A DNA stretch of 64,000 nucleotides from an uncultured Smithella sp. (GCA_964491435.1 CAZBGE010000003.1:3644-67643), one strand, 5' to 3'. Positions 168 to 44,009 are shown, numbered from the stretch's first letter. Notes: generated by a model not told the origin, from the letters alone. Numbers and translations are program-made.

Positions 168-2602
<2,435 letters not shown>

Positions 2603-23139: not shown

Positions 23140-23442
23140 TTATTGAGCCATAATTGAGAAGATGGTGTCGAGTTTTAATTCCCTGAATAATCTCAAAATA
23201 TCCGGTTGCAGATTGGTTACGGACATGGTTCCGCCGTGAACGGCCAGGTTCTTATAAAACAGCAGTAATTTGCCGATGCCGGAACTGCCGATGTATCCAA
23301 CGTTCCGGAAATCGATTTCAACCTTTTTCAGCTGGCTCAGCTCGGAGAGTTTCGCCTTTAACAGCTCGGCTCCTTTTTCATCAATATCGCCAATAATCTC
23401 AAGGCGTCCCCGGTCGTCTTCCTGCGTTATCTTAAAGTCCAT
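23140..23442 (-). CDS. STAS-domain anti-sigma-factor antagonist (canonical phosphorylatable Ser motif)
   Basis: 100 aa. The motif DFRNVGYIGSSGIGKLL matches the SpoIIAA/RsbV DSSGLG-type phospho-serine loop. Confidence 0.85.
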   Translation of the reverse strand: MDFKITQEDDRGRLEIIGDIDEKGAELLKAKLSELSQLKKVEIDFRNVGYIGSSGIGKLLLFYKNLAVHGGTMSVTNLQPDILRLFRELKLDTIFSIMAQ

Positions 23443-23539
23443 GTCTATATCTCCTTTGCCTCAATTGTTAATTTGCCTGTTCCATTTTGCCGTAAGGGAT
23501 AATCATCCGCCGTTTCAGGGGGGTCAAATCCGCGTCGCC

Positions 23540-26500
23540 TCAATCTGTGATAAACCGCCGCCACAGGTCGAATCCTGAAAAAGACCTCATTTCGCGTTTT
23601 TTGCTGTCCTCTCTTGAAAAGTAAGCGATCAAATGCCGGCCGTCATCCGTCCATTGCGTCTCTTCCGTCCAATAACGCATGATAAAGATGCCGCGGCCGA
23701 CAGGTTTTAATAAGTTTTCCCGGCAGGTCGGATCATAAAACGTTTTATAGTCAAAACCGTTGCCCTCATCAATGACTTCCAGAACTGCGTCGTTTCCATA
23801 ACGCCGGCGGACGACAATCATTTTACGAGGATCTTTCCCGTTGCCGTGACTCCAGGCATTCATCATGGCTTCATCCAGAACCATGCGCAATCTGGTTTGC
23901 GGTGAGGGAAAACCACTGCTTTCCCATTCCTCGCTGATCTTGTAAAACAGGTGATTGACGCAAGCATCCAGGTCTTCCAGGTTTTTCGGGCGGACAATGT
24001 CTTCATACTCATGGCCCGCATCTTCCAGCTCCAGGCCCATCAGGGTGATGTCGTCATAAAAACTCCTGGGAATCACCACGCTGTCTCCCTCCCTCCCGTT
24101 GATGCGGTTGAACAGCCGCGCCATGAGGATGGAAACGGGAAGATGAGGTTCGTTTTGGACAATGGATAAAATCAAGTCTTTCACGTTTTGCGCGCTCAAG
24201 ACCGGCTTGCCGGACATATGCGGCATGTCCGTGAGCCCGTCCGTGAAAAAAATCAGCTTGTCGCCTTGCTGAAGCTGAATTTCTTCGCTTCTGAAATCCA
24301 GACTCCGCTCAATCCCCACGGGAAGGTTTCTGCCCTGGCCGTCGATGGACGGGAGGCAAACGATCTCTTGTTCCCGAATCAGCAGGAAGGGGGGGTGTCC
24401 CGCTGAAACATAGCGCATTCTCAGGTTATCATGATTAATCTCGGCGTCCACCGAGGTAAAAAAATTATCATCGCCGAAAAAACGCAGTTCGCAGATTTCG
24501 TGATTGAGACGGCTGATGGTCTCTTCCACCGGCAACGACGGCGTGTGGAGCAGAAGGGCGTTATGGATCAGATCGGTGATGATGCTCCGGAGAATGCAGC
24601 TGACCTCGTGTCCCGACTGATCCTTCAGGCTGACCGCCGTTTTGTGGATGGCGGGATATTGTTCCGAAAGATTTTTGACGAAAAAATGATCGCCGCCCTC
24701 GGCGTAACAGGGCAGGTAGCAGGCGGTAAAAAAGAGGCCTGTATCGCCTGGAAGAAGCGTGTGGCGGTTCGGACGGTAATTGATCATGGACAGGATGTTT
24801 TTGGCCAGATCGATATTCATTTCCTGTTTCAGAAACAACTCTTTCAAGTTGTTGTTGGCGGCGGTCAACTCGTAAGTCCTTTCGGCGACCCGCTGTTCCA
24901 GTTCGGCATGCGCCCTTTGCAGAGCCTCCCGGGTCCGGCGGCGCTCAGTGATGTCGCGGCTCACCGTGAGAATGCCGACCGGTTCGTTTTGGCGGTTGCG
25001 CAACGCGGAAATGCTGCTTTCCAGCCAGACCGTTGAGCCGTCTTTTTTGTATTCCTCAACCTCCAAAACGCGGATGCGGCCGGGATCGGCGGCGCCAGAT
25101 GCTTCCAGTTTCATCTCTTTGTCGAAAACCTCAAGCAGGACTTCCATGGATGCGGGAGTCATGAAACGGTCCAGGGGAGTTTGCATGGCCTCCTCAACAG
25201 TGTATCCGTGGGTTCGCGCAATGGACGGACTGATGTAGGTAAACCGTAAATGCAAATCCGTGACCGTAATGAGCTCTCCGGTATTTTCCGCAATCAGACG
25301 GTATTTTTCTTCACTTTGGCGCAGCGCCTCCTCCACCTGCTTTCGCTGAGTGATGTCGGTGTCGCTGCCGCGGTAGCCCAGGAGGTTTCCGTTGATGTCC
25401 AGTACGGGCAGGCAATTTGTGGAGAGCCATACGGGACGGCCGTCTTTGGTTAAGGCGGGGTTCTCCAGATTTACGAATGCTTCCTGGCGCTGGAAGCCCT
25501 CTAATACAGCTGTTTTGAAAGCCTCTCGTCCGTTTTCGGGATGCAGATCGTAAAAGTGCATCCGGCCCGTCAGTTCGTCCGGATGGTAGCCCAGAACTTT
25601 TGTGGAAACCTCGCTGACATAGGTGTAAAGGCCCTGGGCGTTTACTTCCCAGACGATGGTGCCGCTCTGTTTGGCCATCTGGTCGAAGCGCGCCTCGCTT
25701 TTCCGCAGCGCTTTCTCCACATGCTTGCGCAGGGTAATATCCCTGGAGACGCCGGACAATCCGGTCAACACGCCTTGAGCATTGCGTATTCCGGTGACGA
25801 CTGTCTCCATCCAGCGGGTTGAACCTTGCTTGTGATAATATTCCAGCTCAATGGTGACTGACCGGCGGGGATCGCCAAGCCCCTGCCTTTCCATTTCCAG
25901 CTCCATTGCCAGCTCCTTCGCCAGGGTTTCGTAAACATGGGACAGCGACGCGGGCGTCAATTGTTGTTCAAGGGGCTGGCGCATTCGTTCCTCCGGAGTA
26001 AATCCGAGCACGGTTTGAATGGAGGGGCTGACATATTGTTCCTTCAGATTCATATCCGCTGTCCAGACAATGTCGGATATTCTTTCCGTCAGCAGCCGGA
26101 ATTTGTTTTCGCTTTCCCGGAGCTCATTCTCCATGCGCTTGCGATCGGAAATGTCAATAAAACTTTCCAGATAGCAGTTCCGTCCCTTGATGGCGAGCGG
26201 ATGAACGGTTTTCAAAATATCTTTCTGCAATCCTCCGGCGCAGAGGAGGATTCGTTCCGATTGATCGATAATCTGGCCCAGATCTTTTACGGGGCAGCGG
26301 CCCCTTTCGGCGGGACAAACCAGCGTATGACAGATCTGTCCGATCATTTTCTCCCTGGAGGATCCGATCATTTCGGCCGCGCGGTTATTGGCATCCACAA
26401 TGGTTTGCGATGCGGCGTCAATGATCATGATTCCCGTGTCAATTTGGTTGAAAATGGCCTGCAATTTGGATTCGCTGTCCCGCAATTCCTCCTGCGCCCG

Positions 26501-28201
26501 CTTTTGTCCGGTGATGTCTCTGGAGACGCCGTGAATTCCGGTCAGAACGCCCTGATCGTCGCGCAAGCCGCTGATGGTGGTTTCCATCCAGCGTGTTGAT
26601 CCATCCTTATGATAATATTCCAGTTCTAGGATGGCCACTCTTCCGGGATCAGCATTTCCCTGTTTTTCAATTTCCATTTCCCGCTCCAGCGCCTTCAGTC
26701 CGTAAGCAAGCGAATCCGGGGGAAACTGCTGTTCAATGGATTGCCGCATCCTTTCTTCCTGCGTGAAGCCCAAAATGGTCTGGACGGACGGCGTGACGTA
26801 AACCGTCTGCAAATTCATGTCTGCAATCCAGACAATGTCCGACATTTTTTCTGTAATGAGCCGGTATTGCCTCTCACTTTGCCGCAGCGCCTCCTCCATC
26901 TGCCGGCGTTTGGTCGTATCCCGGGAGATGCCCAGTATCCCGGCGGGAACGCCCTGCTGGTTCCGAAGCAGCGTAAAAACCGTATCGGCCCAGAAAAAGG
27001 AGCCGTCTTTGCGGTAAAATTCCAGCTCCGCCTTGACCGAGATTTCTTCCCGGCTATTTTCCAGCTTTTCCGGAGCGAGATATTGATGGACCAGGCTGAT
27101 GGCCGTTGCGAGCGATGACGGCGTAAACTGCTTTTCCAGGGGCAGTTTTCTAAGTTCATCCAGGCTGTAACCGCGCGCTTGTTCGACGGACGGAGAGATC
27201 CAGGTAATCCGCAGATTCATATCCATGAGCCAGACCGTGTCTTGAATGTGATCCGTGATCAGCCGGAATCGCTTCTCATTTTGCCTGATGATTTCCTCGG
27301 TCCGCATGCGTTCGGTGATGTCCCGGCAAACGTGGACGATGCCAAAGGCGGTGCCGTCTTCGTTACGCAGGATATCGCTGTTCACTTCAAAGAATCCTTC
27401 CCTGCCGTTTTTCATGATCAGCCGGTATTCCTGCGGACCGATTTTCTGCTTCATCATGCGAGCCGTGTTTTGCAACACCCTTTTCCGGTCCTGGGGAGCG
27501 ACCAGCATAATCGCGTTTTGGCCTTCAATTTCATCAAGGCTGTAACCGCTGCTTTGCAGGCCGTATTCATTCACGAAGATGATGTTGCCCGCCAGGTCGG
27601 TGCGCCCGACCAGATCAGGTATGGCGTTGACCAGCCTGTTATAAATTTCCTCGCTTTTTCTCAGGGCGCTTTGCGCGTCTTTCCGATCCGTAATATTGCG
27701 AATGATGATAATGACCTGGTCTTCCAGAAGGGGGATGAATCTGGCTTCATAGAAAATTTCAGTTTCGTGACGCGGCAGATAATATTCAAAACTTGCTGAG
27801 GTGTTTGTGTTTTTGACGTCCTCGATGGCTTTCCGGAATTTATCGGCGGCGGGGACCAGAGGAATATCATATATTTTCCCCCCGAGGATGTCCCGGCGGG
27901 AAACGGGCAGATCGGAAATATGGCCCGTTTTACAGTCCAGGATTGTCCCGGCCTGGTCGATTCTGAAGAAAATATCGGGAACAGCCTCAAAGATGGCCCT
28001 CATTTCCGAATTGGCCTGCAACAGCTCCTGAGAGCTCAATTCCAGTGAACGCTCCAGCATGTTCCGGTCCATGTCCGATTCATGATAGGCGTTGTTGACC
28101 ATATCGATAAAACCGCGCCATTCATCCGGCGCTTCAAACGAATCTCCGAAGAAACTTTTCAGCTGACGCTTCAGAAGACTGTGCATTTTTCCCGATGTCA
28201 T
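23540..28201 (-). CDS. Multi-PAS sensor fused to a PP2C (SpoIIE-type) phosphatase and an RsbW-like HATPase serine kinase
   Basis: 1553 aa.
- About nine PAS/PAC units, each ending in an (S)RDIT.. motif.
- A coiled coil.
- A PP2C domain at about 24026-24820 (GGDHFF, SGH, SAGHPP, FTDGLTD, DDITLM).
- A GHKL ATPase domain at about 23609-23980 (LDEAMMNAWSHGN, VIDEGNGFD, GRGIFIM). Confidence 0.9.
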   Translation of the reverse strand: MTSGKMHSLLKRQLKSFFGDSFEAPDEWRGFIDMVNNAYHESDMDRNMLERSLELSSQELLQANSEMRAIFEAVPDIFFRIDQAGTILDCKTGHISDLPVSRRDILGGKIYDIPLVPAADKFRKAIEDVKNTNTSASFEYYLPRHETEIFYEARFIPLLEDQVIIIIRNITDRKDAQSALRKSEEIYNRLVNAIPDLVGRTDLAGNIIFVNEYGLQSSGYSLDEIEGQNAIMLVAPQDRKRVLQNTARMMKQKIGPQEYRLIMKNGREGFFEVNSDILRNEDGTAFGIVHVCRDITERMRTEEIIRQNEKRFRLITDHIQDTVWLMDMNLRITWISPSVEQARGYSLDELRKLPLEKQFTPSSLATAISLVHQYLAPEKLENSREEISVKAELEFYRKDGSFFWADTVFTLLRNQQGVPAGILGISRDTTKRRQMEEALRQSERQYRLITEKMSDIVWIADMNLQTVYVTPSVQTILGFTQEERMRQSIEQQFPPDSLAYGLKALEREMEIEKQGNADPGRVAILELEYYHKDGSTRWMETTISGLRDDQGVLTGIHGVSRDITGQKRAQEELRDSESKLQAIFNQIDTGIMIIDAASQTIVDANNRAAEMIGSSREKMIGQICHTLVCPAERGRCPVKDLGQIIDQSERILLCAGGLQKDILKTVHPLAIKGRNCYLESFIDISDRKRMENELRESENKFRLLTERISDIVWTADMNLKEQYVSPSIQTVLGFTPEERMRQPLEQQLTPASLSHVYETLAKELAMELEMERQGLGDPRRSVTIELEYYHKQGSTRWMETVVTGIRNAQGVLTGLSGVSRDITLRKHVEKALRKSEARFDQMAKQSGTIVWEVNAQGLYTYVSEVSTKVLGYHPDELTGRMHFYDLHPENGREAFKTAVLEGFQRQEAFVNLENPALTKDGRPVWLSTNCLPVLDINGNLLGYRGSDTDITQRKQVEEALRQSEEKYRLIAENTGELITVTDLHLRFTYISPSIARTHGYTVEEAMQTPLDRFMTPASMEVLLEVFDKEMKLEASGAADPGRIRVLEVEEYKKDGSTVWLESSISALRNRQNEPVGILTVSRDITERRRTREALQRAHAELEQRVAERTYELTAANNNLKELFLKQEMNIDLAKNILSMINYRPNRHTLLPGDTGLFFTACYLPCYAEGGDHFFVKNLSEQYPAIHKTAVSLKDQSGHEVSCILRSIITDLIHNALLLHTPSLPVEETISRLNHEICELRFFGDDNFFTSVDAEINHDNLRMRYVSAGHPPFLLIREQEIVCLPSIDGQGRNLPVGIERSLDFRSEEIQLQQGDKLIFFTDGLTDMPHMSGKPVLSAQNVKDLILSIVQNEPHLPVSILMARLFNRINGREGDSVVIPRSFYDDITLMGLELEDAGHEYEDIVRPKNLEDLDACVNHLFYKISEEWESSGFPSPQTRLRMVLDEAMMNAWSHGNGKDPRKMIVVRRRYGNDAVLEVIDEGNGFDYKTFYDPTCRENLLKPVGRGIFIMRYWTEETQWTDDGRHLIAYFSREDSKKREMRSFSGFDLWRRFITD

Positions 28202-28207
28202 GAACCG

Positions 28208-29347
28208 CTAATCCTCGGCCAGTGTTGTGATGGTCATGGTCTGGTTATGGAGCGTACTGGGATCGTCCGCCGTAAATGGAGAAATTTCTCCATAGGAATA
28301 AAATCCCGCAAGTTTCGGAGCGCACCGGAAGACATCGTTGGCGGCTTCCACTTCTTCCTCGATTCTTTGTTTCAGCACAAGCTTGCGGCCGACGCAGCTG
28401 ATGAGGATGGCCAGTTCGGGAGAGCTTCCCCGGAGCCCCTCGAGGCTTCTGACGGCCGCTCCGCTGGCCCCGTCAATGAGCCGTTCGAAGTTGGCTTTCA
28501 TGAAACGGGCGTAAGCCCCCTGGGGGACATCACCGGCGAAAGTCATGCTGCTGTCTTCTTCGTTTACGGACAGGATGGTTCTCACGATGCCCTTTTCGCC
28601 GCTTCTGGCGCGGATGCTCAAAGGAAAAAGCAGGCCGGCGGCGGGGAGCCCCTTGGCGTATTCACCCAGATACTTCTTGTACAGGCTCAATGCCGTCTGT
28701 CCGTCCAATTCATAGAGGATGTTTTCTTTTGACTTGGTAATGATCCGGTCCGGGCCGAAGGGATCCCACCCTCCCATGGAGCCATAGCCGATCTTCAGGT
28801 TTTTTCCATATAAGCCCACAATCGCCAGGGTGTTTTTTGACGGAGGATTGTCCCAGAAAACATAGGTTTCCGTAAAATGAGAGCCATTGCCTGCCAGGCC
28901 GCCGGTAATGGGCACTCCTGCGGGAAGGGCGCCGGACAGGCCTTTGACCAGTTCGCTTCCGTTGACGCCCAAGCCGTCGGACAGGACGAACACATGGCGC
29001 AGGCCTTTATTTTCGATGGATTGCGCCAGCATCCGGCCTGCGTCAAAACTGCCGGAAGTCTTTTTCAGGGCAAGCTCGGCCCCCATGAATTCCGTTTTTT
29101 CGAAATGGATCGCCGTGGCGACCAGAGAATCATCCGAAACACGGGTGCCGCATATCTCACCGGCCGTGGAACAGCCGAAAAAATGCGCTCCCGGATACAT
29201 TTTTTTCACCTCTGCAAAAAAGATTTGATCTTTTAAAATTTCCGTTGCGGCGAAAATAATGACCAGCTGAATTTTCTTTTCCATGGCAGGTCCGTTTTGC
29301 AGAGACCAGCCCTTTGCTTTGGTCCATATCCTTTGTTCGATTTTCAT
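28208..29347 (-). CDS. Stand-alone FIST (FIST_N + FIST_C) sensory-domain protein
   Basis: 379 aa with no TM helix and no output domain (FFGCSTAGEI, VLSDGLGVNGSELV, GFYSYGEISP). Its start overlaps the upstream kinase stop by 4 nt. Its stop lies 6 nt before the PAS-PP2C start. Confidence 0.83.
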   Translation of the reverse strand: MKIEQRIWTKAKGWSLQNGPAMEKKIQLVIIFAATEILKDQIFFAEVKKMYPGAHFFGCSTAGEICGTRVSDDSLVATAIHFEKTEFMGAELALKKTSGSFDAGRMLAQSIENKGLRHVFVLSDGLGVNGSELVKGLSGALPAGVPITGGLAGNGSHFTETYVFWDNPPSKNTLAIVGLYGKNLKIGYGSMGGWDPFGPDRIITKSKENILYELDGQTALSLYKKYLGEYAKGLPAAGLLFPLSIRARSGEKGIVRTILSVNEEDSSMTFAGDVPQGAYARFMKANFERLIDGASGAAVRSLEGLRGSSPELAILISCVGRKLVLKQRIEEEVEAANDVFRCAPKLAGFYSYGEISPFTADDPSTLHNQTMTITTLAED

Positions 29348-32079
29348 TGATAATTCTCCCGGTTGGCCGATGATTCTTCCTCACTCCGGCATTGCCTCAT
29401 GTTTTCTTCCAGAACCCTTCGGATCAGCCGGGTAAATTCGTTCATGATAATGGGTTTTAAGACGTATTCCCGGACGCCGATGACTTTGGCCTGCTCCGGC
29501 GAAACAGTGGCGCTGAAACCAGTGCATAAAATAATGGGGAGTTCCGGCCGGATCCGCAGCATGGTTTTAGCCAGGTCCGCTCCGGTCAGATAAGGCATCG
29601 TCTGATCGGTGATGACCAGATCATAAGCAAAAGGATCGGCTTGAAAAAGCTGCAGCGCTTCCAGAGAACTGTTCCGGGCCGTCATTTTGTATCCGAGGCG
29701 GGACAGGGACTTGGACATCATCTCCACCATGAAATCCTGATCGTCAATCAGGAGAATCCGTTCCGTGCCTCCGACGGCGGGAACAACCTTCGCCTCCTGA
29801 AGTTGCGCGCTCTGTTGCGCCAGCATGGGCAAATAAATAAAAAAGACGGTTCCTTTGCCGACTGTGCTTTCCAGACAAATATGCCCTCCGTAGCTTTTCA
29901 CAATGCCATGGACGACGGCCAGGCCCATGCCCGTTCCTTCTCCTGTTTTTTTCGTCGTGAAGAAAGGATCGAATATTTGGCTCTGAATTTTTTCATTGAT
30001 GCCGTGCCCGTCGTCAGCCACTTGAAGTTCCAGGTAGTCGCCCGCGTTTAAATGCTCACGCAGAGATGGATGTTCCTCAGAGATCGCCATTTGCTTGAGC
30101 CCGATGGTTAACGTGCCGCCTTTCTCGCTCATGGCGTGCGCGGCATTGGTGCATAAATTCAGCAATACTTGATGCACCTGAGTCGCATCCGCCAGAATGA
30201 ATGCGTCATGGACCTGGATGTTTTGCCTGATGAAGATGGTGGAAGGCAGCATGGCGCGCAGCAGCTTGATGATTTCCTTAATCACGGGGGCGATCATTAA
30301 AGGCTTCCTGGCTGTCGCGTCGCGGCGGCTGAAAGCCAGAATCTGCGCAACCAGATTTTTGGCCCGGTCGCTGGCGCGGAAGATCTCGTCGATACATTCG
30401 CCCGCAGGGCTTTCCGCCGGCAATTCTTCCAGGGCCATGCCCGCATAACCGATGATGGCGCCTAAAATATTGTTGAAATCATGGGCGATTCCTCCGGCCA
30501 GGGTTCCAATGGCTTCCATCTTCTGGGCCTGGATCAATTGCGCTTCCATTTTCTTGCGCTCGGTGATGTCGTTAAATAAAATGGCGAATTGTCCCTTTTG
30601 CGGACAAAACGCATGAATCTGATAATGGCGCTCCGATTCTTTGACATAATTTTCAAAAGAAAGGGGTTCCCCGGTTAAGGCGACCTTTCCATAGATGGCG
30701 ATGTTGCCGGTTTCCGAAGGAGGCAAGACCTGCCGGCAGCATTTGCCGATGACTTGCGCGGCCTTCAGATTGGTTATGGTCTCGAATGCCGGATTGATAT
30801 CCAGAAAACGGTAGTCAACGGGATCGCCGTGATGATCGCAAATGATTTCATGAAGCGCAAAGCCTTCCAGCATTTCCGTAAACAGGGAGCGATACTTCTG
30901 CTCGCTTTCCCGCAACTTGTCTTCGGCTTGTTTGTATCCGGTGATGTCATAGCTGATGCCGATCATATGCAAGGGAGCGCCGTTGGCGTCTCTGGTTACT
31001 TTGCCGTAAGAACGGATGTGTTTCAGGGTTCCGTCAGGATGGATGACCCGGAAAGCGGTATGATAGTTTTTGTCGCCCCTCAGCGCTTGCTGAATTTCAG
31101 CTTCGTTCGAGGCAGCGTCATCCGGGTGGAGACTGTTTCGCCAGGCCTCCTGCATGTCAACAATATTTTCCTTGTTCATGCCGTGGAGTTCATACATCCG
31201 GTCATTCCACACCACATGATTATTCCGCAGATCTTTGTCCCACACGCCCAGATTCGCCGCTTTGGTGGCCAGATCAAGTCTTTCCAATAAATTTTTCTTT
31301 GCTTCCGCCTCCTTTTTGCGCTCGGTGATGTTGCGGGCGATAAATAAGACGCCGGCCGGTTTTCCGTTTTCCTGAAATAATTGCGAAAGAATATCCAGGA
31401 TGACTCTCTGGCCTTTTGCGTCAACGATTTCCCATTCATAGGCGGAAATGCCGGCATAGCCGTCCATCCTCCTTTGCATCATGGCTTGCTGCATCTCCAG
31501 AAGTTCCGGGGGGGTAAAGGCGGTGATGCTCATTCCGGTGGGGTCAACATCTCCCAGCAAGTCCCGGACCGCTTTGTTGACGTAAGTGATCTTCCAGCTG
31601 AAATCAGAAGTAATAATAAGATCTTGTATCGTTTCCGTAATCAGGCGGTAGTTTTCCCAGCTTTTGTGCCATTCCCGTTCGATGCGTTTGAGCGCATTGC
31701 GCACCCTGGCTTCGGTCAATTCTCTGTTAATGGCCGGGAGCAGACGGTGCAGATTTTCCTTCCGGATGTAATCGCGCGCTCCCAGACGCATGCATTCCAC
31801 GGCCGCTTCTTCATCAATGACGCCGGAGACAATGATCAGGGGAATATCCAGATCCTCTTCCGTTAACAGATTGATCGCGTCATGCACATTGAATCCGGGC
31901 AGATTGTAGTCGCACAAAATGACATCCCACTGTTTTCCGTCAAGCGCCTTGCGCATGGTTTTGGCCGTTTCGACCCGTAAAAAGTCGGGATCGTAACCGC
32001 CCTTTTTCAGGGCGCGCGCAATGAGCGAAACATCATCTTTATTATCTTCGATAATCAGAACCCGCAGGGGTGTCAGCAT
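29344..32079 (-). CDS. Hybrid sensor histidine kinase (REC-PAS x3-HisKA-HATPase-REC)
   Basis: 911 aa.
- N-terminal canonical receiver (VLIIEDNKDD...ILCDYNLPG...DYIRK).
- H-box GIAHDFNNILGAI.
- G-boxes DDGHGI and GTGMGLAV.
- C-terminal receiver (ILLIDDQ...VITDQTMP). Confidence 0.9.
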   Translation of the reverse strand: MLTPLRVLIIEDNKDDVSLIARALKKGGYDPDFLRVETAKTMRKALDGKQWDVILCDYNLPGFNVHDAINLLTEEDLDIPLIIVSGVIDEEAAVECMRLGARDYIRKENLHRLLPAINRELTEARVRNALKRIEREWHKSWENYRLITETIQDLIITSDFSWKITYVNKAVRDLLGDVDPTGMSITAFTPPELLEMQQAMMQRRMDGYAGISAYEWEIVDAKGQRVILDILSQLFQENGKPAGVLFIARNITERKKEAEAKKNLLERLDLATKAANLGVWDKDLRNNHVVWNDRMYELHGMNKENIVDMQEAWRNSLHPDDAASNEAEIQQALRGDKNYHTAFRVIHPDGTLKHIRSYGKVTRDANGAPLHMIGISYDITGYKQAEDKLRESEQKYRSLFTEMLEGFALHEIICDHHGDPVDYRFLDINPAFETITNLKAAQVIGKCCRQVLPPSETGNIAIYGKVALTGEPLSFENYVKESERHYQIHAFCPQKGQFAILFNDITERKKMEAQLIQAQKMEAIGTLAGGIAHDFNNILGAIIGYAGMALEELPAESPAGECIDEIFRASDRAKNLVAQILAFSRRDATARKPLMIAPVIKEIIKLLRAMLPSTIFIRQNIQVHDAFILADATQVHQVLLNLCTNAAHAMSEKGGTLTIGLKQMAISEEHPSLREHLNAGDYLELQVADDGHGINEKIQSQIFDPFFTTKKTGEGTGMGLAVVHGIVKSYGGHICLESTVGKGTVFFIYLPMLAQQSAQLQEAKVVPAVGGTERILLIDDQDFMVEMMSKSLSRLGYKMTARNSSLEALQLFQADPFAYDLVITDQTMPYLTGADLAKTMLRIRPELPIILCTGFSATVSPEQAKVIGVREYVLKPIIMNEFTRLIRRVLEENMRQCRSEEESSANRENYQ

Positions 32080-32098
32080 GGCATGCTCCTCTTTGACG

Positions 32099-35294: not shown

Positions 35295-35310
35295 CTTTTC
35301 TCCACCCGTA

Positions 35311-35682
35311 TCATTCCGCAAGCAGCTCTTTGACCGCCGCGAGAATTTCACTGTGTGTAAACGGTTTGACCAATGTTTTCTGTGCTCCCAGGTTTCCGGC
35401 CAATTCCAAATAATACTCTCCGGAATTGAGCTGGCCGCCGCCGGAGATGGCGATAATCCTTGTCGCCGGATATTTCTTGTGGAATTCCATAATGGTTTCA
35501 ATTCCTTCCTTTTCGGGCATGACCAGGTCCGTGACGATGAGATCGAATGGACCTTCTTCCTGACGCCGGACAGCCTCTTTGCCGTTTTCAGCGACGGACA
35601 CGTCAAATCCGTTGGCGGTAAAGAGCTTCCGCAGCATGGCTCTGATAGCGTCGTCGTCGTCAATGACCAAAATGCGTTTCAT
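35311..35682 (-). CDS. Single-domain CheY-like response regulator
   Basis: 123 aa (ILVIDDDD...LIVTDLVMPEKEG...TLVKP). It sits 16 nt downstream of cheB and 16 nt upstream of the hybrid kinase. Confidence 0.9.
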   Translation of the reverse strand: MKRILVIDDDDAIRAMLRKLFTANGFDVSVAENGKEAVRRQEEGPFDLIVTDLVMPEKEGIETIMEFHKKYPATRIIAISGGGQLNSGEYYLELAGNLGAQKTLVKPFTHSEILAAVKELLAE

Positions 35683-35698
35683 GGCGTTATCCTTTCCG

Positions 35699-36775: not shown

Positions 36776-36832
36776 GAGGATTTCCTTTTGCCGTCTTTTT
36801 GGTTTCCGGAACATGAGCGGGGTGGCTCATGC

Positions 36833-37348
36833 TTATTGCCTCAGCACGACAATTCCTGTTTTCGTATTGAAGCTGATTTTCCGCCCTGCCGTTCCGCCGA
36901 CGTCGCAGCAGTGAATGGTGAAGCCGTGATCCGCGATGACTTTTTTGGCCGCGATCAAATTTTGCAGTCCGACGGGCTTTATGCCTGCGGACTGCTTTGG
37001 CGAGGCGATCATCTTCGCGCCGCCGAAAAGCTGGACTTGTGTTTCCGATGCGGCGATGCCGGAGCGGGAAAACGCTTCGATCATCATGGAAACGGAGCAG
37101 TCCACGTACCTGTATGCTTCCGGGCACTTTGCGCAGTCTTCGTTCAAAAGATCCCCGGCGTAATTTTTATAGACATGCCGTTTACAATGCGGCAGGAGCG
37201 CATGGCTGATGGCCGCCATCCCCAGTCGCTTGTTGAAGAGCGTCACCGCAATGCACGAACCGAGAATCGTGGTGATGATGGCCGGCCTTTCGATGATGGA
37301 TATTTCTCCCGGCTTCAGATACAAATGAACGTTCCCTGTTTTATTCAT
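36833..37348 (-). CDS. cheD: Chemoreceptor glutamine deamidase
   Basis: LKPGEISIIERPAIITTILGSCIAVTLF...HALLP is the CheD signature. The start at ATG 37348 overlaps the cheR stop by 8 nt. Confidence 0.88.
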   Translation of the reverse strand: MNKTGNVHLYLKPGEISIIERPAIITTILGSCIAVTLFNKRLGMAAISHALLPHCKRHVYKNYAGDLLNEDCAKCPEAYRYVDCSVSMMIEAFSRSGIAASETQVQLFGGAKMIASPKQSAGIKPVGLQNLIAAKKVIADHGFTIHCCDVGGTAGRKISFNTKTGIVVLRQ

Positions 37349-38213
37349 GATCTCGGATCTTCCTGTAGATGGATGACGCGACAAGCTGCAGGGGCAGGTT
37401 CATTCCGTTCAGCGTTTCCGAATGGCCCGTAAACAGCAAGCCGCCCGGCGCCAGATGGCGGCAAATCCTGCCCAGAATAGCCTCCTGAGTTTCGCGGTTG
37501 AAGTAAATCATGACGTTGCGGCAAAAGACAACATCAATGTTGTTTTGCAGATTATAATATGCGTCCATGAAATTCAAGCGCGCGAAAGTGACGCGGGCGC
37601 GCAGTTCCGGGACAATGCGCACCTCGCGGCCGTCCTTGCTTTTCAGGAGATATTTTTTGCGCAACGGCATCGGCACCGGTTCGGCCTTTTCGTGCGGGTA
37701 AATGGCCGTTGCCGCCTGACGAAGAACTTTTGTGGAAATATCTGTGGCCAATATGGAAAAGTGAAATAACGGATCGGTCAAGGCGTGTTCGGCCAGAACC
37801 ATCGCCAGGGTATAAGGCTCTTCGCCCGTGGAACATCCGGCCGACCAGAATTTCATATCGCGGACTCCGCGTCTTGATCCGTCACGCTGCAGGACGGCAA
37901 GCAAATGATTGCCAAGAAATTCAAAATGTCCGGATTCACGGAAAAAATCCGTCTTGTTGGTCGTGACGGCGTCAATCATGTGATAAAGTTCTTCTTCGGC
38001 GCCCGCCGGGCTGAACACGTAATCGGCGTAGGCGCCAAAAGAAAGGAGACGAAGCAGACGCAGGCGCTTGTGAAGGCGGGTCTGCAGCATCGTCTTTTTG
38101 GACAGAGGCATCTTGATGCCGCATTGTTTCTGAATAAACCCGCCAATGCGTAAAAAATCGGAGTCGGTCATGTTGCCGAACGCTATGTCTTGCCCTTTTT
38201 CATTCAATTCCAT
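37341..38213 (-). CDS. cheR: Chemotaxis protein methyltransferase
   Basis: 290 aa. CheR N-terminal helical domain plus SAM domain (FWSAGCSTGEEPYTLAM, ILATDIS, VFCRNVMIYF). Confidence 0.92.
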   Translation of the reverse strand: MELNEKGQDIAFGNMTDSDFLRIGGFIQKQCGIKMPLSKKTMLQTRLHKRLRLLRLLSFGAYADYVFSPAGAEEELYHMIDAVTTNKTDFFRESGHFEFLGNHLLAVLQRDGSRRGVRDMKFWSAGCSTGEEPYTLAMVLAEHALTDPLFHFSILATDISTKVLRQAATAIYPHEKAEPVPMPLRKKYLLKSKDGREVRIVPELRARVTFARLNFMDAYYNLQNNIDVVFCRNVMIYFNRETQEAILGRICRHLAPGGLLFTGHSETLNGMNLPLQLVASSIYRKIRDHE

Positions 38214-38225
38214 ACACTCACTGTG

Positions 38226-38720
38226 TCATGCGGCTTCGGTTTTTAATGCGTTTGCGGCCGTCATCTCTTCCAGCGAAAAGACCTTATCGATATCCAGAAT
38301 GATGACAAACGAATCATCGCGTTTCCCCATGCCCAGGATAAAGTCCGTGTTCAGTTTTGCGCCGATTCTGGGCGCCGGCTCAATCTGGGATGGTTCCAGT
38401 TCAAACACTTCCTGAACGGAATCCACCAGCGCGCCGAGGATGGTTGGTTCGTTGTCAATGGCTATTTCCACGACGATGATGCAGGTGTCGACGGTGCGTT
38501 CCTGCGTTAACATATTGAACTTCTGGCGCATATCGACAACCGGCACGACCGCTCCCCGGAGGTTGATGACGCCCTTCATGAATTCCGGCGTCTGCGGCAC
38601 TTTGGTGATAGCCGTATAGTCCAGTATTTCCCGGACCTTACCCACGTCCAGGGCGAATATTTCCTCGTCCAGTTTAAAAGTCAGATAAGGTCGAATTTCC
38701 GTTATTTTGGATATTGCCAT
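38226..38720 (-). CDS. cheW: Chemotaxis coupling protein
   Basis: 164 aa, CheW-like domain (YLTFKLDEEIFALDVGKVREIL, GVINLRGAVVPVVDMR). Confidence 0.92.
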   Translation of the reverse strand: MAISKITEIRPYLTFKLDEEIFALDVGKVREILDYTAITKVPQTPEFMKGVINLRGAVVPVVDMRQKFNMLTQERTVDTCIIVVEIAIDNEPTILGALVDSVQEVFELEPSQIEPAPRIGAKLNTDFILGMGKRDDSFVIILDIDKVFSLEEMTAANALKTEAA

Positions 38721-38807
38721 GGTCTAGTTCTCCCTTCCGGCCATTTTGGTGACATTCCGATTCAAAATTTCCTCATGAAAAAGGCGTCCGTCTGGAATCC
38801 GCGTTTG

Positions 38808-40652
38808 TCAGTACCTGTCGAATTCCGTATCCAGATGCTCTTCGCTGTCTGTCATGTTCAGGTGAATGCCGGAGCTTTCCTGCTTTGCCGCCTGCGGTGA
38901 ATGATGCTTCCCCGTCGCCGTGAACAGCCTGGCGTGGCCGGGATGTCCTTTGGGTGCGGGGTTGCCCTTCAATAGCTTTAAGGTTGCGGCCGCGGCGAAT
39001 TTATGATGGGCGGCCCCTCCGTCGCCTTGATCCGTTTCCTCGATTTTAAAGAAGGCGACGGATTCCTGCAGTTGCTGAGCCTGGCTCGACAGCTCCTCCG
39101 CGGTTGAGGATAATTCTTCGGAAGCGGATGCATTTTGTTGAATCACTTGATCGAGTTGTTGAATGGCTTTGTTGATTTGTTCGGCTCCGGCATCCTGTTC
39201 TTTGCTGGCGGCGCTGATTTCCTGGACAAGGTCCGCGGTTTTTTGAATGTCCGGCACCATTCTGTCCAGCATTTGGCCTGCCTGTTCGGCAATCAGGACG
39301 CTGCTGGCGGACAACTTGTTGATTTCCCCGGCCGCCGTCTGACTGCGCTCCGCAAGTTTGCGGACTTCCGAGGCGACGACGGCGAAACCTTTGCCGTGGT
39401 CGCCTGCCCGGGCCGCTTCGATGGCGGCGTTCAGCGCCAGCAGATTGGTTTGGCGCGCGATTTCTTCAATGATGGAAATCTTGCCGGCGATTTCCTTCAT
39501 GGCTTTTACGGTATCCCCGACGGCCTTGCCGCCCTCCTTGGCGTCCTGCGCCGACTTGATGGCGATTTTTTCAGTCTGCTGGGCGTTATCGGCATTCTGC
39601 TTGATGTTGGAAATCATCTGCTCCATGGAGGAGGAAACTTCTTCCGCCGACGCGGCCTGTTCCGTCGCCCCTTGCGACATTTCAACGGAGGATGAACTCA
39701 ATTGCTCTGAGCCCGACGCCACATTGTTCGCCGCCGATTTGACATCATGAAAAACGTTCCGGAGCCTGGTGACCATGTTCAGCATGCTGACGGCCGCCAG
39801 ATCTTTTTCGGAATGGGGCTTGATCTCCACGGTTAAATCCCCGTCGGCGATCCGCGCGACCGATTGCGCCGACTGCCGGATGTTTTCGATCATATCACGA
39901 AAAGCCTGCGCCAGCATGCCGATTTCATCCTTGGAATTGACATCCACCTGAACGTCAATATCGCCGGTCGCAAGTTTCTTGGACACGGCGACCATTTTAT
40001 TGACGGGAACGGTAATGCTGCGCGTCACTAAAAAGGCGAGGAGCAGACTTCCCAAGACAACCAGAATGATGACGCCGCCGATGATGTAAGTGACCTTGGC
40101 CAGATCTTTCTGGACGTCATCGATATAAATTCCCGAACCGATGATCCATCCCCAGGGTTTATAGAGGGCGATATAGGAGATTTTATCAGAGGGGATGGTT
40201 TCTCCCGCTTTCGGCCATTGATATTCCACCATGCCTTCTCCTTTTTCCCTGGCCACATTGACAAATTCCATGAAAAATCTTTTTCCAGTCGGATCTTTCT
40301 TATCCGAGACATCCACGCCGTTTAATTCCGGATTGAAGGGATGCATGATCATTCTGGGCGTCAAATCATTAATCCAGAAATATTCATTCTTGTCGTAACG
40401 CAGATTTTGTACGTCCCGGAGGGCCAGTTTTTGCGCGTCAGCCAGTTTCATGGCGCCTTTTTTCACGCTTTCGTCGTATTGAGCCACAAGACTGTATGCC
40501 ACATGTACGACGTGCTTTGTCGCCAGCATTTTTTCCTGGTAAACACGTTCCCGGAATTGCAGAAAAGTCCACGCCAGCACCAATGAAAAGCACAGTAAAA
40601 TGATGGTTACCTGTAAAATCAGCTTTGTTGATAATTTCAGTCTTGATAGCAT
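38808..40652 (-). CDS. Methyl-accepting chemotaxis protein with a single-Cache-type periplasmic sensor and HAMP
   Basis: 614 aa.
- TM1, a Cache-like domain ([15 protein letters not shown]...YQWPK...[10 protein letters not shown]) and TM2.
- HAMP domain.
- Signalling tip [40 protein letters not shown].
- No C-terminal NWETF-type pentapeptide. Confidence 0.92.
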
Positions 40653-40769
40653 ATTTTAAGGCTCCTTTATTTTATTTGGCCATGTTGGATCAATATGGCC
40701 ATTTGCGTTCATCCGGCATTTTCATGTTTCCGCGAATCGGGAGATGCTTCCCGTGTAAAAAAGCGCTTT

Positions 40770-42854
40770 TTAATGCTGACGGGCTTTCCCGGCGGCCTGT
40801 TGCGTCAATTGCGGGATGTCAATGATCAGGGCGACCGTTCCGTCTCCAAGGATGGTGGCGCCTGATAATTCCCTGGTGTGCCGGTAGAATTTGCCCAGAT
40901 TCTTGATTACCGTCTGATGTTCTCCGATGACCTGATCAACGGCCAGTCCGATCCGGTCGTCTCCCACGCGGTTAATGATGATCTGTTCAATATCCGGCGC
41001 TTTTCCGGGGATGGCGAAGCGCTCGCGAAGCGGAATGTAAGGCACCATTTCCCCGCGAATTTGAATCAGGTGACGGCCGTGCGCTTTTTCGATGGCTGCG
41101 CGGGTCAGCTCCACGCATTCTTCAATGGCGGCCAGCGGAATGACAAAGAAGGATTCTCCGGTTTTGACAAGCAATCCGTCGATGATCGCCAGCGTCAGCG
41201 GAAGTTTGAGGGTGAAGGTCGCGCCCTGTTCCGGCTGGCTGACAATATCGATTGCGCCGCCAAGGGAATCGATGCTTCTTTTCACGACGTCCATGCCGAC
41301 GCCCCGGCCTGAAACGCTGGTAACGGTTTTGGCGAGCGAAAACCCGGGAGAAAAAATAAGCGCGAGGATTTCCTTTTCTGATAGATTAGCGTCACCGGCG
41401 ATGATGTTTTTGTCCAATGCTTTACGGCGAACCGCTTCGGCGTCGATGCCCGCTCCGTCATCGGAAATATGGATTAAAACGTGTGAACCGGAATGTTCGG
41501 CAATGAGCCGCACCGTGCCGGCCGCCGGTTTTCCCTTGCCGCGCCGGACATCGGGCGCTTCGATGCCATGATCGACGCTGTTGCGAATCAAATGCACCAG
41601 CGGATCATTTAGTTTTTCAATAACGGTTTTGTCCAGTTCCGTTTCGCCGCCCTTGGTGACAAGGTTGATTTCCTTGCCCAGTTCCGCCGCAAGATCATGA
41701 ACCAGTCTTTTAAATTTGCTGAACGTGTTGCCGATGGGCAGCATGCGGATACTCATGGTGTTGTCACGCAATTCGGCAACCAGCCGTTCCACTTCCTCCG
41801 CCACCAGCAGAAGGTCCGTATTATGCGCGCCGGATGATATCTGGGACAAACGAGACTGGATGGTGACCATTTCTCCGACCAGATTGACGAGCGCGTCCAG
41901 CCTCTGGGCCGGCACGCGGATGGTTGCCGATATGTCCGCGTTGCGACGCATTTCCCGGACTTCCCTGATGTGTTGCTGTTCCGCCAGCGCCGCATGAATC
42001 TTATCCGGAGCGACGATTCCCGATTCCACCAGCAGCTCGCCGAATTTTTTATGGCTGCTTAACGCCTGATTAACGTCGTCCTGGCCGAGATAGCCTCTTT
42101 CGACGAGGATTTCACCCAGCTTTTTGTATTCAGGGGAGGATTTTTCCCTTCCTTCATCGATTACTTCAATTTTCAACAGGCTTTCATCTTCGACAAAAAT
42201 GAAAACATCACGGATGGCGTTGATGCTCTGGCTGGTAGTTAAAATAATATCCCAGTAAGTATAACAAGCTTCCGGATCCATTTCGTGGAGGAGGGGAATG
42301 TTGTCCGTCTGGGCAATGATGATGCATTCTCCAAGTTCCCGCAGCTCCCGCAGCAGCAGGGATGGTTTGGCGCCGCTGCTGAAGATATTGCTCGCCGGCG
42401 CAAAGCGGATCCGGTAAACGATCAGACGGCCGGTGTCGGGAGTTTCTTTCCTCCGATCTTTTCGCGCCGCCGGCGTTTTTTCTTCCGTTACGGGAATAAA
42501 TTCTTTAAAGGCCGCCGTCTGTGCTTCAATGTTATGGCGATCGATTTCTTCCCTGCCTTCCACCATTTTTCGAATCTGGTCGCAGGCGGTCAGGGTCAGA
42601 CCGACCAGCGCTTTGTCCGCGACAATTTTTTTGTTTCTCAGCAGGTCATAGACTGTTTCAATATCATGGGTGAATGAGGCGACCTCGTCAAATCCAAACA
42701 TGGCGCCTGAACCCTTGATCGTATGCATGGAACGGAAGATGCCTGCAATCAGCTCGGCGTCCTCCGGGTTTTTTTCCAGCGCCAGCAGGGAGCTTTCCAA
42801 TTCCGTCAGCAGTTCAAAAGCCTCTTCTTTAAATGCATCCGCATGCGGGTCCAT
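40770..42854 (-). CDS. cheA: Chemotaxis histidine kinase
   Basis: 694 aa. P1 Hpt (SMHTIKGSGAMFGF), P3/P4 (HLIRNSVDHGIE, DDGAGID, GRGVGMDVV) and P5 CheW-like domains. The start overlaps the cheY stop (TAATG). Confidence 0.95.
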   Translation of the reverse strand: MDPHADAFKEEAFELLTELESSLLALEKNPEDAELIAGIFRSMHTIKGSGAMFGFDEVASFTHDIETVYDLLRNKKIVADKALVGLTLTACDQIRKMVEGREEIDRHNIEAQTAAFKEFIPVTEEKTPAARKDRRKETPDTGRLIVYRIRFAPASNIFSSGAKPSLLLRELRELGECIIIAQTDNIPLLHEMDPEACYTYWDIILTTSQSINAIRDVFIFVEDESLLKIEVIDEGREKSSPEYKKLGEILVERGYLGQDDVNQALSSHKKFGELLVESGIVAPDKIHAALAEQQHIREVREMRRNADISATIRVPAQRLDALVNLVGEMVTIQSRLSQISSGAHNTDLLLVAEEVERLVAELRDNTMSIRMLPIGNTFSKFKRLVHDLAAELGKEINLVTKGGETELDKTVIEKLNDPLVHLIRNSVDHGIEAPDVRRGKGKPAAGTVRLIAEHSGSHVLIHISDDGAGIDAEAVRRKALDKNIIAGDANLSEKEILALIFSPGFSLAKTVTSVSGRGVGMDVVKRSIDSLGGAIDIVSQPEQGATFTLKLPLTLAIIDGLLVKTGESFFVIPLAAIEECVELTRAAIEKAHGRHLIQIRGEMVPYIPLRERFAIPGKAPDIEQIIINRVGDDRIGLAVDQVIGEHQTVIKNLGKFYRHTRELSGATILGDGTVALIIDIPQLTQQAAGKARQH

Positions 42855-43219
42855 TATCCCAGCACCTTTCTGACAACCGCCAAGAGCTGATCCGGCTTAA
42901 ACGGTTTCACAATCCAGCCGGTTGCGCCGGCTTGTTTGCCTTCCTGTTTTTTTTCGATCTGAGATTCCGTCGTCAGCATGACAATGGGGATGAATTTATA
43001 AACCGCCTGCGCCCGCACGCCTTTGATCAGACCGATGCCGTCCAGCCTGGGCATGTTCAAATCGGTGATAATCATGTGGATGGCGGTGCCCGTCATCCTG
43101 TTTAATGCATCCTGGCCGTCGCACGCCTCCAGAACTTCAAAACCTGCTTGTTTCAGGGTGAAGGAAACCATCTGTCTTACTGATGCGGAATCATCCACCG
43201 TCATAATTACTTTGCCCAT
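42854..43219 (-). CDS. cheY: Chemotaxis response regulator
   Basis: 121 aa, canonical receiver (VIMTVDDSASVR...MIITDLNMPRLDG...MLTTES...WIVKPF). Confidence 0.93.
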   Translation of the reverse strand: MGKVIMTVDDSASVRQMVSFTLKQAGFEVLEACDGQDALNRMTGTAIHMIITDLNMPRLDGIGLIKGVRAQAVYKFIPIVMLTTESQIEKKQEGKQAGATGWIVKPFKPDQLLAVVRKVLG

Positions 43220-43284
43220 TTTCTTTTCCTTCTGAAAAGATCTACGTCAGTTTTGCTCCTCCGGAACGAAGGGGCGCTACAACA

Positions 43285-43623
43285 CTATCTTCTCACCCAT
43301 AAACATGTTTTTCCGGCGTCGAGGCTGCAGCCGCTTTGCCGGGAATATCCGTTGTCATCCATGGCTTGCTGGAAGACTTTTGGCGGCCCTCCGGCCAGTT
43401 TCAATGTTTTGCCCGTTTTCATTGCCGTCCGGTGGGCCGCGCAGAGGATCTGTAAAAAAGACAGGTCGATTTCCGTAACGTCTTCCATATCAATATCCAG
43501 GCTGCGCACCGTGTCCAGTGCATTCTTCAGGCTGTCTTGCAGCGGCCGGATGTGGTCCAGGGTAAGTTCTCCCTGTAATACCAGTTTTCCCAGGTCATCA
43601 TCGTTTTTTTGCAGGAAAGTCAT
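43285..43623 (-). CDS. STAS-domain protein (divergent; phospho-serine loop not conserved)
   Basis: 112 aa with a STAS-like pattern (LVLQGELTLDHIRPLQDSL...IDMEDVTEIDLSFLQIL...LKLAG). The loop reads IDLSFL instead of DSSGLG. Confidence 0.72.
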   Translation of the reverse strand: MTFLQKNDDDLGKLVLQGELTLDHIRPLQDSLKNALDTVRSLDIDMEDVTEIDLSFLQILCAAHRTAMKTGKTLKLAGGPPKVFQQAMDDNGYSRQSGCSLDAGKTCLWVRR

Positions 43624-44009
43624 TGGAGCGCCTCATTCGTACACATTTTTTCTTTCATCTTAATTAAGACGGATGCGACATCCAGAAAATCGCTGTCGGC
43701 GAAAGTGATAAACCTGGGCCGCAAGTGGTGTCCCAGAGAAATGGTTTCCGCGTCCTTATCCTTCAGGATCAAGATAATACTTGTGTCTTCAAGCAGTTTT
43801 TGAATGGAAAAAAGACTCTGCAGTCTTGTTTTGCCGACATGTAAAATGACGGCGAGTGACAGTTTATGGCTGGATGTCCGCAGATTTTTTTCAAGCTCTT
43901 TCACCGATTTGATATATTTAATGTTTTTTTTCGGCAGCATGTACTGCAACACCCTTTGAAGCCGCTTCCGGGTGTCGCTTTTCATGTCGGAGAGAAAAAA
44001 AACGTTCAT
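43620..44009 (-). CDS. Hypothetical protein with a receiver-like alternating beta/alpha pattern but no phospho-acceptor Asp
   Basis: The ORF is open to 44081. I chose ATG 44009 (MNVFFLSD...) because it has an AGGAG RBS 9 nt upstream. Its stop overlaps the STAS start by 4 nt. The fold assignment is inference from the hydrophobic periodicity. Confidence 0.5.
   Translation of the reverse strand: MNVFFLSDMKSDTRKRLQRVLQYMLPKKNIKYIKSVKELEKNLRTSSHKLSLAVILHVGKTRLQSLFSIQKLLEDTSIILILKDKDAETISLGHHLRPRFITFADSDFLDVASVLIKMKEKMCTNEALQ

Follow-up and report, generated by a model that had tools for sequence, protein, structure and literature searches.

A chemosensory core, a phosphorelay and a FIST-associated partner-switching module in a sixteen-gene block with a putative sigma-54 promoter from an uncultured Smithella species

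The stretch of DNA analysed here, 64,000 nucleotides from an uncultured Smithella sp. (GCA_964491435.1 CAZBGE010000003.1:3644-67643; hereafter the window, with positions counted from its first letter), contains a block of 16 open reading frames (ORFs) at 23140-44009 that brings together a chemosensory (Che) core, a phosphorelay, a FIST sensor and a partner-switching module. All 16 ORFs lie on the minus strand and run head to tail, and their order, as assigned with Pfam, is pseudo-receiver, STAS (STAS1), CheY, CheA, methyl-accepting chemotaxis protein (MCP), CheW, CheR, CheD, CheB, a receiver (REC2), a hybrid kinase (HK2), a further receiver (REC3), a second hybrid kinase (HK1), FIST, a PAS-PP2C-RsbW fusion and a second STAS protein (STAS2). 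With the start codons picked in the initial annotation of this DNA, the distances between successive genes are -4, 65, -1, 117, 87, 12, -8, 18, 16, 16, -29, 19, -4, 6 and 97 nt, which reproduces the co-directional arrangement first described, its largest gap of 117 nt and each of the reported overlaps (first gene/STAS, 4 nt; cheY/cheA; cheR/cheD, 8 nt; HK2/receiver, 29 nt; HK1/FIST, 4 nt), and the Pfam calls agree with the domain composition proposed for the 16 genes. It had also been claimed that the window holds no flagellar, pilus or sigma-factor gene, and a Pfam scan of the other ORFs of at least 150 aa across the 64 kb found none. The possibility that internal terminators split the block was not borne out: terminator-like sites are not enriched in it, no strong intrinsic terminator was found and none of the gaps holds an intrinsic one, the hairpins present in the CheA-MCP gap being without a U tract. 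Sigma-70-like sites number 24 against 13.5 +/- 3.9 expected, and they are weak and mostly intragenic; none of these sites was taken as evidence for a divided operon. Since the same gene order recurs in other species, the block is not a product of chance, and we conclude that it is a real feature conserved in a small group of Syntrophales.

The 5' part of the block encodes the chemosensory core. Its first gene (43620-44009) specifies a protein of 129 aa that had been described as receiver-like, and this description stands for the fold: the AlphaFold2 model (pLDDT 83) has a (beta-alpha)5 topology, and Foldseek matches it to REC and CpaE/TadZ-type receivers. A check of catalytic residues showed that the acidic pocket and the phospho-acceptor Asp are absent, and we therefore call it a pseudo-receiver. 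It has no match in Pfam or NCBIfam and belongs to an unannotated family of proteins of about 130 aa (1505 cluster representatives) without the phospho-acceptor Asp, in which the motif ILILPDR..TI..GH.LRPRFLTY.DSDF is conserved. At the same position, the related locus L092 (related loci are given as L plus a number) has a HEAT-REC gene, and the idea that the pseudo-receiver is a remnant of such a gene was discarded because BLASTP found no significant similarity. STAS1 (43285-43623), of the STAS_2 type, has DLSF where SpoIIAA has DSSG and possesses no canonical phosphorylatable Ser. CheY (42854-43219) is canonical, with the equivalents of D12, D13, D57, T87 and K109 intact. CheA (40770-42854; Hpt, dimerisation, HATPase and CheW domains in Pfam) has the architecture P1-[MshEN insert]-P3-P4-P5, and its matches in the PDB are CheA of E. 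coli and of T. maritima, with scores so nearly equal, E. coli being slightly nearer, that no class was called from them.

The insert in CheA (aa 245-293; 41976-42122, minus strand) sits between P1/P2 and P3, exceeds the cut-off of NCBIfam model NF053729 for an MshE-related c-di-GMP-binding domain (41.7 bits against 38) and matches the N-terminal region of PilF in the PDB. The 24-residue MshEN motif KFGELLVESGIVAPDKIHAALAEQ is present in the window CheA in one exact and one near copy; the motif has been published, and CheA is already among the listed MshEN fusion partners (PMC5013675). Among the 85 ORFs of loci L089-L174 hit by the CheA core, a few of which are other kinases, 28 carry the motif, and the insert is kept in the closer CheA relatives and absent from a more distant group. 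The insert is thus predicted from its sequence to be a domain that binds cyclic di-GMP (c-di-GMP).

The receptor of the core (38808-40652) is a transmembrane sCache_2-HAMP-MCPsignal protein with two transmembrane segments, which can be aligned over its entire length with E. coli Tsr, its nearest match, save for two symmetric deletions of 7 residues; with Tsr taken as a 36-heptad (36H) receptor, these two deletions place it in the 34-heptad (34H) class. Its C-terminus, EFDRY, follows a long linker and fits the xF/YxxF/Y motif for tethering CheR that is found on 34H receptors in the E. coli-like clusters of Geobacter (PMC2577667). CheW (38226-38720), CheR (37341-38213), CheD (36833-37348; the NCBIfam CheD models score under their cut-offs) and CheB (35699-36814) complete the core. 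The start of CheB is more likely at 36775, giving 358 aa, because the orthologs in L002 and L092 have this length.

Directly after CheB come the four genes of the phosphorelay. REC2 (35311-35682) is a single-domain receiver with intact catalytic residues, kept after CheB in L092, L094 and L177 and found directly after the MCP in L091. HK2 (32469-35294) consists of a pseudo-receiver, PAS, HisKA, HATPase, two receivers and Hpt, according to Pfam searches that included sub-segments; its N-terminal receiver is degenerate, and its Hpt domain is the sole one besides the Hpt-type P1 of CheA. An ortholog of HK2 (51-66% identity) comes after Che genes in each of L091, L092, L094 and L177. The single-domain receiver REC3 (32099-32497) is 75-89% identical in L091, L092 and L177 (75% in the last), and in L174 an Hpt gene is followed by a REC3-like gene. 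HK1 (29344-32079), examined in the same way as HK2, comprises a receiver, three PAS domains, HisKA, HATPase and a C-terminal receiver, and has orthologs of 59-69% identity in L091, L092 and L177 (68% in L177); a kinase 58% identical to it follows the STAS gene in L087, where the FIST module stands alone. HK1 is the only gene that we found with both the relay and the switch. Except for the pseudo-receiver and the N-terminus of HK2, all receivers retain the phospho-acceptor and catalytic residues.

The FIST gene (28208-29347) encodes a stand-alone FIST_N plus FIST_C sensor of 379 aa that resembles NosP, a stand-alone FIST protein characterized as a heme-based sensor of nitric oxide co-cistronic with a kinase and, in many cases, a REC-HD-GYP regulator (PMC12570481). 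Its build is that of NosP, namely FIST_N and FIST_C alone, a length within about 370-390 aa and a co-cistronic signalling protein, and it aligns over its full length with the NCBIfam NosP model NF041558, at 76.6 bits against a cut-off of 450; members of its family from other phyla score 45-82 bits. The family is unusually conserved: proteins with 53-79% identity to the window protein occur in no fewer than 598 species-representative genomes spread over many phyla, including Nitrospirota, Chloroflexota, Bacteroidota, Acidobacteriota, Cyanobacteria and Proteobacteria. By its scores with the NosP model, it looks like a distinct sister family of NosP. A sequence search of the PDB with FIST returned no match. 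At 80 FIST loci, a same-strand gene for a PAS-containing signalling protein invariably lies directly downstream, and a phmmer comparison of such downstream genes revealed a common N-terminal module of about 70-75 residues, for which there is no Pfam model, in 80 of 82 (E-values from 1e-44 to 5e-8), whether the output is a histidine kinase, HD-GYP or PP2C. The consensus of the module is H.LL.RQ...G....P..W..F...V..AY...D.DR.MLERSLELSS.EL..ANS.MRA, and in the window it spans 27977-28201 (minus strand), at the start of the PAS-PP2C-RsbW protein. Because this module is shared by nearly all of the downstream genes, FIST would act on the protein encoded next to it; if FIST works through the N-terminal module, the window FIST would be a dedicated input of the PP2C-RsbW enzyme rather than a generic member of the Che system. 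FIST thus probably gates this enzyme directly. As a marker for the whole supercluster, FIST was rejected, as none of 80 species genomes has Che or PP2C genes beside it, and homologs with 75-79% identity mostly lie away from Che genes; in L007, L089, L175 and L176, such homologs are followed by a PAS-HK-REC kinase and there are no Che genes.

The PP2C-RsbW enzyme (23540-28201) is a fusion of 1553 aa containing the N-terminal module, about eight PAS domains, a PP2C domain of the SpoIIE family and an RsbW-like HATPase_c_2 domain, and Pfam searches of the protein and its sub-segments found no receiver. The PP2C motifs (GGDHF, DQSGHE, AGHPP, TDGLTD and DDITL) and the N and G boxes of the RsbW-like kinase (EAMMNAWSHGN, DEGNGF and GRGIF) are intact. 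Beyond its own clade, the PP2C-RsbW part most closely resembles REC-PP2C-HATPase_c_2 proteins (about 45% identity), some of which also have a fused STAS domain; in the window enzyme, the eight PAS domains stand in place of the receiver of this HsbR/CrsR type of architecture. STAS2 (23140-23442) is of the anti-sigma-antagonist type (TIGR00377, 52.3 bits against a cut-off of 53.45), has a phosphorylatable Ser in a GSSG motif (Ser53/54) and is 75% and 70% identical to its counterparts in L087 and L092. Judged by these motifs, the enzymes of the switch look active.

The functional unit does not end at 44009 but reaches upstream to a promoter, an activator gene, an MCP-like gene and a REC-HD-GYP gene. 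A sigma-54 (-24/-12) promoter-like site, TGGCGT-N5-TTGCA, lies at 44065-44080 on the minus strand, 57 nt 5' of the ATG at 44009, within the 700-nt gap that separates the first gene from the activator gene. The strict motif TGGC-N7-TTGCW occurs just twice on both strands of the window, and the sequence of the site is identical in L001-L003. Because the motif occupies 44080-44065, we place the start of the first gene at 44009 rather than 44081. A further, near-identical sigma-54-like motif (TGGCGTCGTTTTTGCT; 8461-8476, minus strand) falls within the ORF of an SBF-family transporter (8208-9578) and was dismissed as probably due to chance. The activator gene (44791-46290, minus strand) encodes a sigma-54 enhancer-binding response regulator of the REC-AAA+ type (Response_reg, Sigma54_activat and AAA_lid_14 in Pfam) with intact catalytic residues in its receiver; the nearest NCBIfam models are of the AtoC/NtrC type, and it scores under their cut-offs. 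No rpoN gene was found in the 64-kb window. With a candidate promoter at a fitting place and an activator gene adjacent, the operon may be sigma-54-dependent.

Divergent from the activator gene, an ORF at 46583-48466 (plus strand) encodes a soluble MCP-like protein of 627 aa, with a weak MCPsignal match in Pfam, no transmembrane segment and a strongly degenerate hairpin tip. Its C-terminus, ...DNVELF, is loosely like the CheR-tether pentapeptide, and a weaker sigma-54-type motif, TGGCAT-N5-ATGC, is found at 46467-46481 (plus strand), about 100 nt upstream of the gene. The next gene (48471-49613, minus strand) encodes a REC-HD-GYP response regulator (Response_reg and HD_5/HD) that reaches 346.5 bits with the NCBIfam NosR family NF053512, for which the cut-off is 400. 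This protein is a predicted NosR-family-like c-di-GMP phosphodiesterase and a candidate output of the Hpt relay; HD-GYP genes adjoin HK2 homologs in L093, L094 and L177.

Apart from these upstream signalling genes, the remaining scanned ORFs of the window are mostly housekeeping genes, for example those for glutamate dehydrogenase, MoaC, IlvD, NadD, a ProA-like protein, UvrA, Mfd, SurA, NadA and thiolase, and two ORFs (19834-21009 and 62780-63421) received no confident Pfam assignment. The gene adjoining that of glutamate dehydrogenase (1601-2602, minus strand) encodes an NrpR-type regulator (HTH_12 plus NRD1_2); the NrpR family is best known as an archaeal nitrogen repressor.

The relatives of the locus reveal how its parts hold together and how they come apart. 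Among named sequences, the best matches belong to uncultured Syntrophales (Smithellaceae/Syntrophaceae). A metagenome scan anchored on CheA yielded 80 loci with 46-63% identity, in addition to 15 contigs of the same organism with an identical CheA, and these loci define a widespread cluster type, STAS-(CheY)-CheA-(MCP)-CheW-CheR-CheD-CheB, in which most have a STAS gene directly upstream of CheY/CheA, many have an MCP-like gene directly before the STAS gene and a sigma-54 activator gene upstream, and a CheY-like receiver with a PAS protein, kinase or Hpt protein often follows CheB. The closest of them, L095, has homologs of both upstream genes and runs MCP-like, activator, pseudo-receiver, STAS, CheY, CheA, MCP, CheW, CheR, CheD and CheB; an MCP-like homolog is also present in L177, and activator homologs lie upstream of other related Che clusters. 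Linkage between the Che genes and the PP2C and STAS genes, on which the initial annotation had made its reading depend, is conserved in at least two other species. In L092, a locus of another species on a contig of 4.78 Mb, the whole order from STAS1 to STAS2 is kept, with protein identities of 42-89% and the HEAT-REC protein replacing the pseudo-receiver, and L091 is a variant with STAS, CheY, CheA, MCP, REC2, HK2, REC3, HK1, FIST and the first part of the PP2C protein and without CheW, CheR, CheD and CheB; at 2793-5164 of L091, the MCP gene leads straight to REC2, so that nature offers here a form devoid of CheW and of the adaptation genes. Other relatives hold one part or another. L177 has MCP, CheW, CheR, CheB, REC2, two HD-GYP genes, HK2, REC3, HK1 and an MCP-like gene and lacks FIST, PP2C and STAS2; L094 has CheB, REC2, a fragment of an HD-GYP gene and a homolog of HK2, then other kinases, and no FIST, PP2C or STAS gene; and L087 has FIST (79% identity), PAS-PP2C-RsbW (61%), STAS (75%) and the HK1-like kinase, alone among housekeeping genes. 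The junction of Che genes and relay is the best conserved, being shared by the window, L091, L092 and L177, and the junction of relay and switch is kept in three lineages. The syntenic site at L093 (Mfd-SurA-SurA-UvrA-REC-HD-GYP ... NadD-ProA) is occupied by an HK2-like Hpt kinase together with further kinases and has no Che, FIST or PP2C genes; compared with it, the window at 22350-49613 has the same flanks and another kinase set, and this region behaves as a variable signalling island.

Two kinds of known system each resemble one half of the block. The 'stage 1' ancestral F7 clusters are represented by V. cholerae cluster III, S. oneidensis Che1 and a cluster of M. alcaliphilum (PMC7184735; PMC9855816); their function has been linked to stress (PMC7184735), and the S. 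oneidensis Che1 locus includes CrsR/CrsA, which regulates RpoS by partner switching (PMC9855816). As in these clusters, cheY-cheA in the window is immediately preceded by a STAS gene, the receptor and cheW are followed by cheR-cheD-cheB, and the 3' end has a second STAS gene with a serine phosphatase bearing an RsbW-like domain, separated here from cheB by five extra genes; the receptor classes (34H in the window, 36H in stage 1) are closely related, and a role outside motility, in stress and RpoS control, has been proposed. The differences are that the window has one CheW in place of two cheW-like genes and a transmembrane sCache_2 receptor instead of a soluble Aer2-like PAS-HAMP receptor of the 36H class; that REC2, HK2 with its Hpt, REC3, HK1 and FIST are added ahead of the phosphatase, which carries about eight PAS domains in the place of a receiver and precedes STAS2; and that there are a sigma-54 promoter-like site and activator, an MshEN insert in CheA and a Syntrophales host. 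In gamma-proteobacteria, motility is served by systems other than the STAS-linked clusters of the F7 type (PMC7184735, PMC9855816), and by analogy with these clusters a role outside motility is plausible for the window cluster.

The second half recalls P. aeruginosa, in which NosP controls a pathway from NahK through HptB and HsbR (REC-PP2C-RsbW) to HsbA (STAS) (10.1101/2025.09.24.678285). This pathway and B. pseudomallei nosRPK (PMC12570481; 10.1101/2025.09.24.678285) share with the window a stand-alone FIST protein encoded before a signalling partner, hybrid kinases, an Hpt step, a PP2C enzyme with an RsbW-like domain, a phosphorylatable STAS protein and REC-HD-GYP. In contrast to the NosP pathway, the parts in the window are gathered within or next to a single operon that also holds a Che core, the gene after FIST is that of the PP2C-RsbW enzyme instead of a kinase gene, and the Hpt is a domain of HK2 rather than a separate protein, while the enzyme lacks the receiver of HsbR. 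M. tuberculosis Rv1364c (PDB 3ke6), the only PDB match that spans both catalytic parts of the enzyme, similarly combines PAS, PP2C and an RsbW-like kinase in one polypeptide; the similarity is weak (E = 2e-4), and in the window STAS is a separate gene and the enzyme has about eight PAS domains and the FIST-partner module. In R. centenum (Che3/CheS3) and M. xanthus (Che3/CrdA), a Che core is tied to a PAS hybrid kinase or a sigma-54 activator and serves functions other than motility; neither is known to have a STAS/PP2C switch or FIST. The initial annotation was aware of no described pathway of this full composition, and our literature search found neither the full combination nor a receiver-less, FIST-coupled phosphatase; however, Che with STAS and serine phosphatase, on the one hand, and the route from NosP to HsbA, on the other, were already known. 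The locus is thus a new combination of known kinds of module and not a new category of system.

Drawing on the observed domain content, intact catalytic motifs, promoter motif and conservation of gene order, we favor, with about even confidence, a model in which the block is a sigma-54-dependent operon of three modules, each also found apart, that forms a multi-input circuit with outputs other than motility. Domain logic, conserved adjacency and analogy guide every phosphotransfer and binding step in what follows. The sigma-54 activator would turn the operon on. In the first module, an F7-like, STAS-associated core, the sCache_2 receptor, the soluble MCP-like protein, CheW and CheA would form an array that adapts through CheR, CheB and CheD, and phosphorylated CheA would pass its phosphoryl group to CheY, CheB and probably REC2. 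The second module would be the relay of REC2, HK2, REC3 and HK1, which travels with the Che genes; REC3, the N-terminal receiver of HK1 and the neighboring REC-HD-GYP protein would probably receive phosphoryl groups from the Hpt domain of HK2, and the last of these transfers would alter the level of c-di-GMP, which CheA may in turn sense. In the third module, FIST would bind the N-terminal module of the PAS-PP2C-RsbW enzyme and set the balance of kinase and phosphatase activity on Ser53/54 of STAS2, and the target of the partner switch, whether a sigma factor, an anti-sigma factor or another effector, would be encoded elsewhere. HK1, which occurs with either module, probably connects the relay to the switch.

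Several points weigh against this model. The complete arrangement was found in only three species-level lineages, FIST scores far under the NosP equivalog cut-off (76.6 against 450 bits), the REC-HD-GYP gene lies outside the operon in this window, and the 64 kb contain no target for the partner switch, there being no sigma-factor gene. All phosphotransfer partners are guessed from adjacency, with no receiver in PP2C-RsbW a physical connection of the relay to the switch is hypothetical, and motility genes may lie elsewhere in the genome, of which 64 kb were seen. A bolder form of the model is possible but doubtful: four layers, namely an adapting receptor array with a c-di-GMP-sensing CheA, an Hpt relay, a c-di-GMP phosphodiesterase and a FIST-gated partner switch, would be hard-wired in one operon with HK1 as the physical bridge from relay to switch, chemoeffector gradients and an intracellular FIST ligand would jointly set a sigma-factor or lifestyle decision of a syntrophic anaerobe, and FIST would represent a new, phylum-spanning class of sensor that docks on a module of about 70 residues in interchangeable effectors.

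The initial annotation had read the block as a linear chain in which the array feeds a phosphorelay whose terminal readout is a STAS protein. In its strict form, the signal would pass from the receptors through CheA and then REC2, HK2-Hpt, REC3 and HK1 to PP2C-RsbW, with phosphorylation of STAS2 as the single readout. The composition and linkage on which this reading was built are sound, as the genes are co-directional and tightly packed in an order kept in L092 and L091, and the HptB-HsbR-HsbA and CrsR/CrsA pathways do end in such a switch (PMC9855816; 10.1101/2025.09.24.678285), but the chain itself fares less well. The enzyme has PAS domains and no receiver, unlike its REC-bearing homologs, so that direct phosphotransfer to it from the relay is impossible; FIST and the conserved N-terminal module appear to be its own input; and the switch occurs without Che genes in L087, just as the Che-linked relay occurs without the switch in L177 and L094, where HD-GYP genes are found instead. 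STAS phosphorylation as the terminal readout is likewise at odds with the REC-HD-GYP protein, the sigma-54 activator and promoter-like site, and the c-di-GMP-binding insert predicted in CheA, which suggest other outputs and inputs. We therefore regard a strict linear chain as unlikely.

The same modularity could be taken to mean that the modules share no more than a location and a transcript in a variable signalling island, acting in parallel without cross-talk. The different kinases at the syntenic site in L093, which has no Che, FIST or PP2C genes, speak for this, as do the occurrence of each module alone elsewhere and the location of FIST homologs with 75-79% identity, mostly away from Che genes. 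However, the CheB-REC2-HK2-REC3-HK1 junctions and the overlap of HK1 and FIST recur in several species, pointing to translational coupling, and HK1 orthologs go with both modules, so we think independent action of the modules improbable. Ordinary taxis, in which the flagella or type IV pili under the control of CheY would be encoded at another place in the genome and the additional genes would act as modulators, is very unlikely, for although no part of the Che core is missing, adaptation enzymes included, although it has a canonical CheY and a CheR-tether pentapeptide, and although only 64 kb of the genome were seen, the window has no motility gene, the STAS-linked F7-type clusters of gamma-proteobacteria are not motility systems (PMC7184735, PMC9855816), and L091 retains CheY-CheA-MCP and the relay without CheW, CheR, CheD and CheB.

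A multi-input circuit of separable modules bears on a wider problem, because it is unsettled, even in Vibrio and Shewanella, how STAS-linked (ancestral F7) chemosensory systems are wired and what their output is. In the Smithella locus, one predicted transcription unit unites a Che core with parts that lie dispersed in Pseudomonas (NosP, hybrid kinases, Hpt, PP2C/RsbW, STAS and HD-GYP), and the natural variants without single modules provide a compact map of likely signalling partners. The locus also draws attention to two elements that have received little study, namely the FIST family that looks like a sister of NosP, along with its partner module, and the clade of CheA proteins bearing MshEN. 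If the model is true, chemoreceptor arrays could drive switches in gene expression or lifestyle in bacteria that live in obligate metabolic partnerships.

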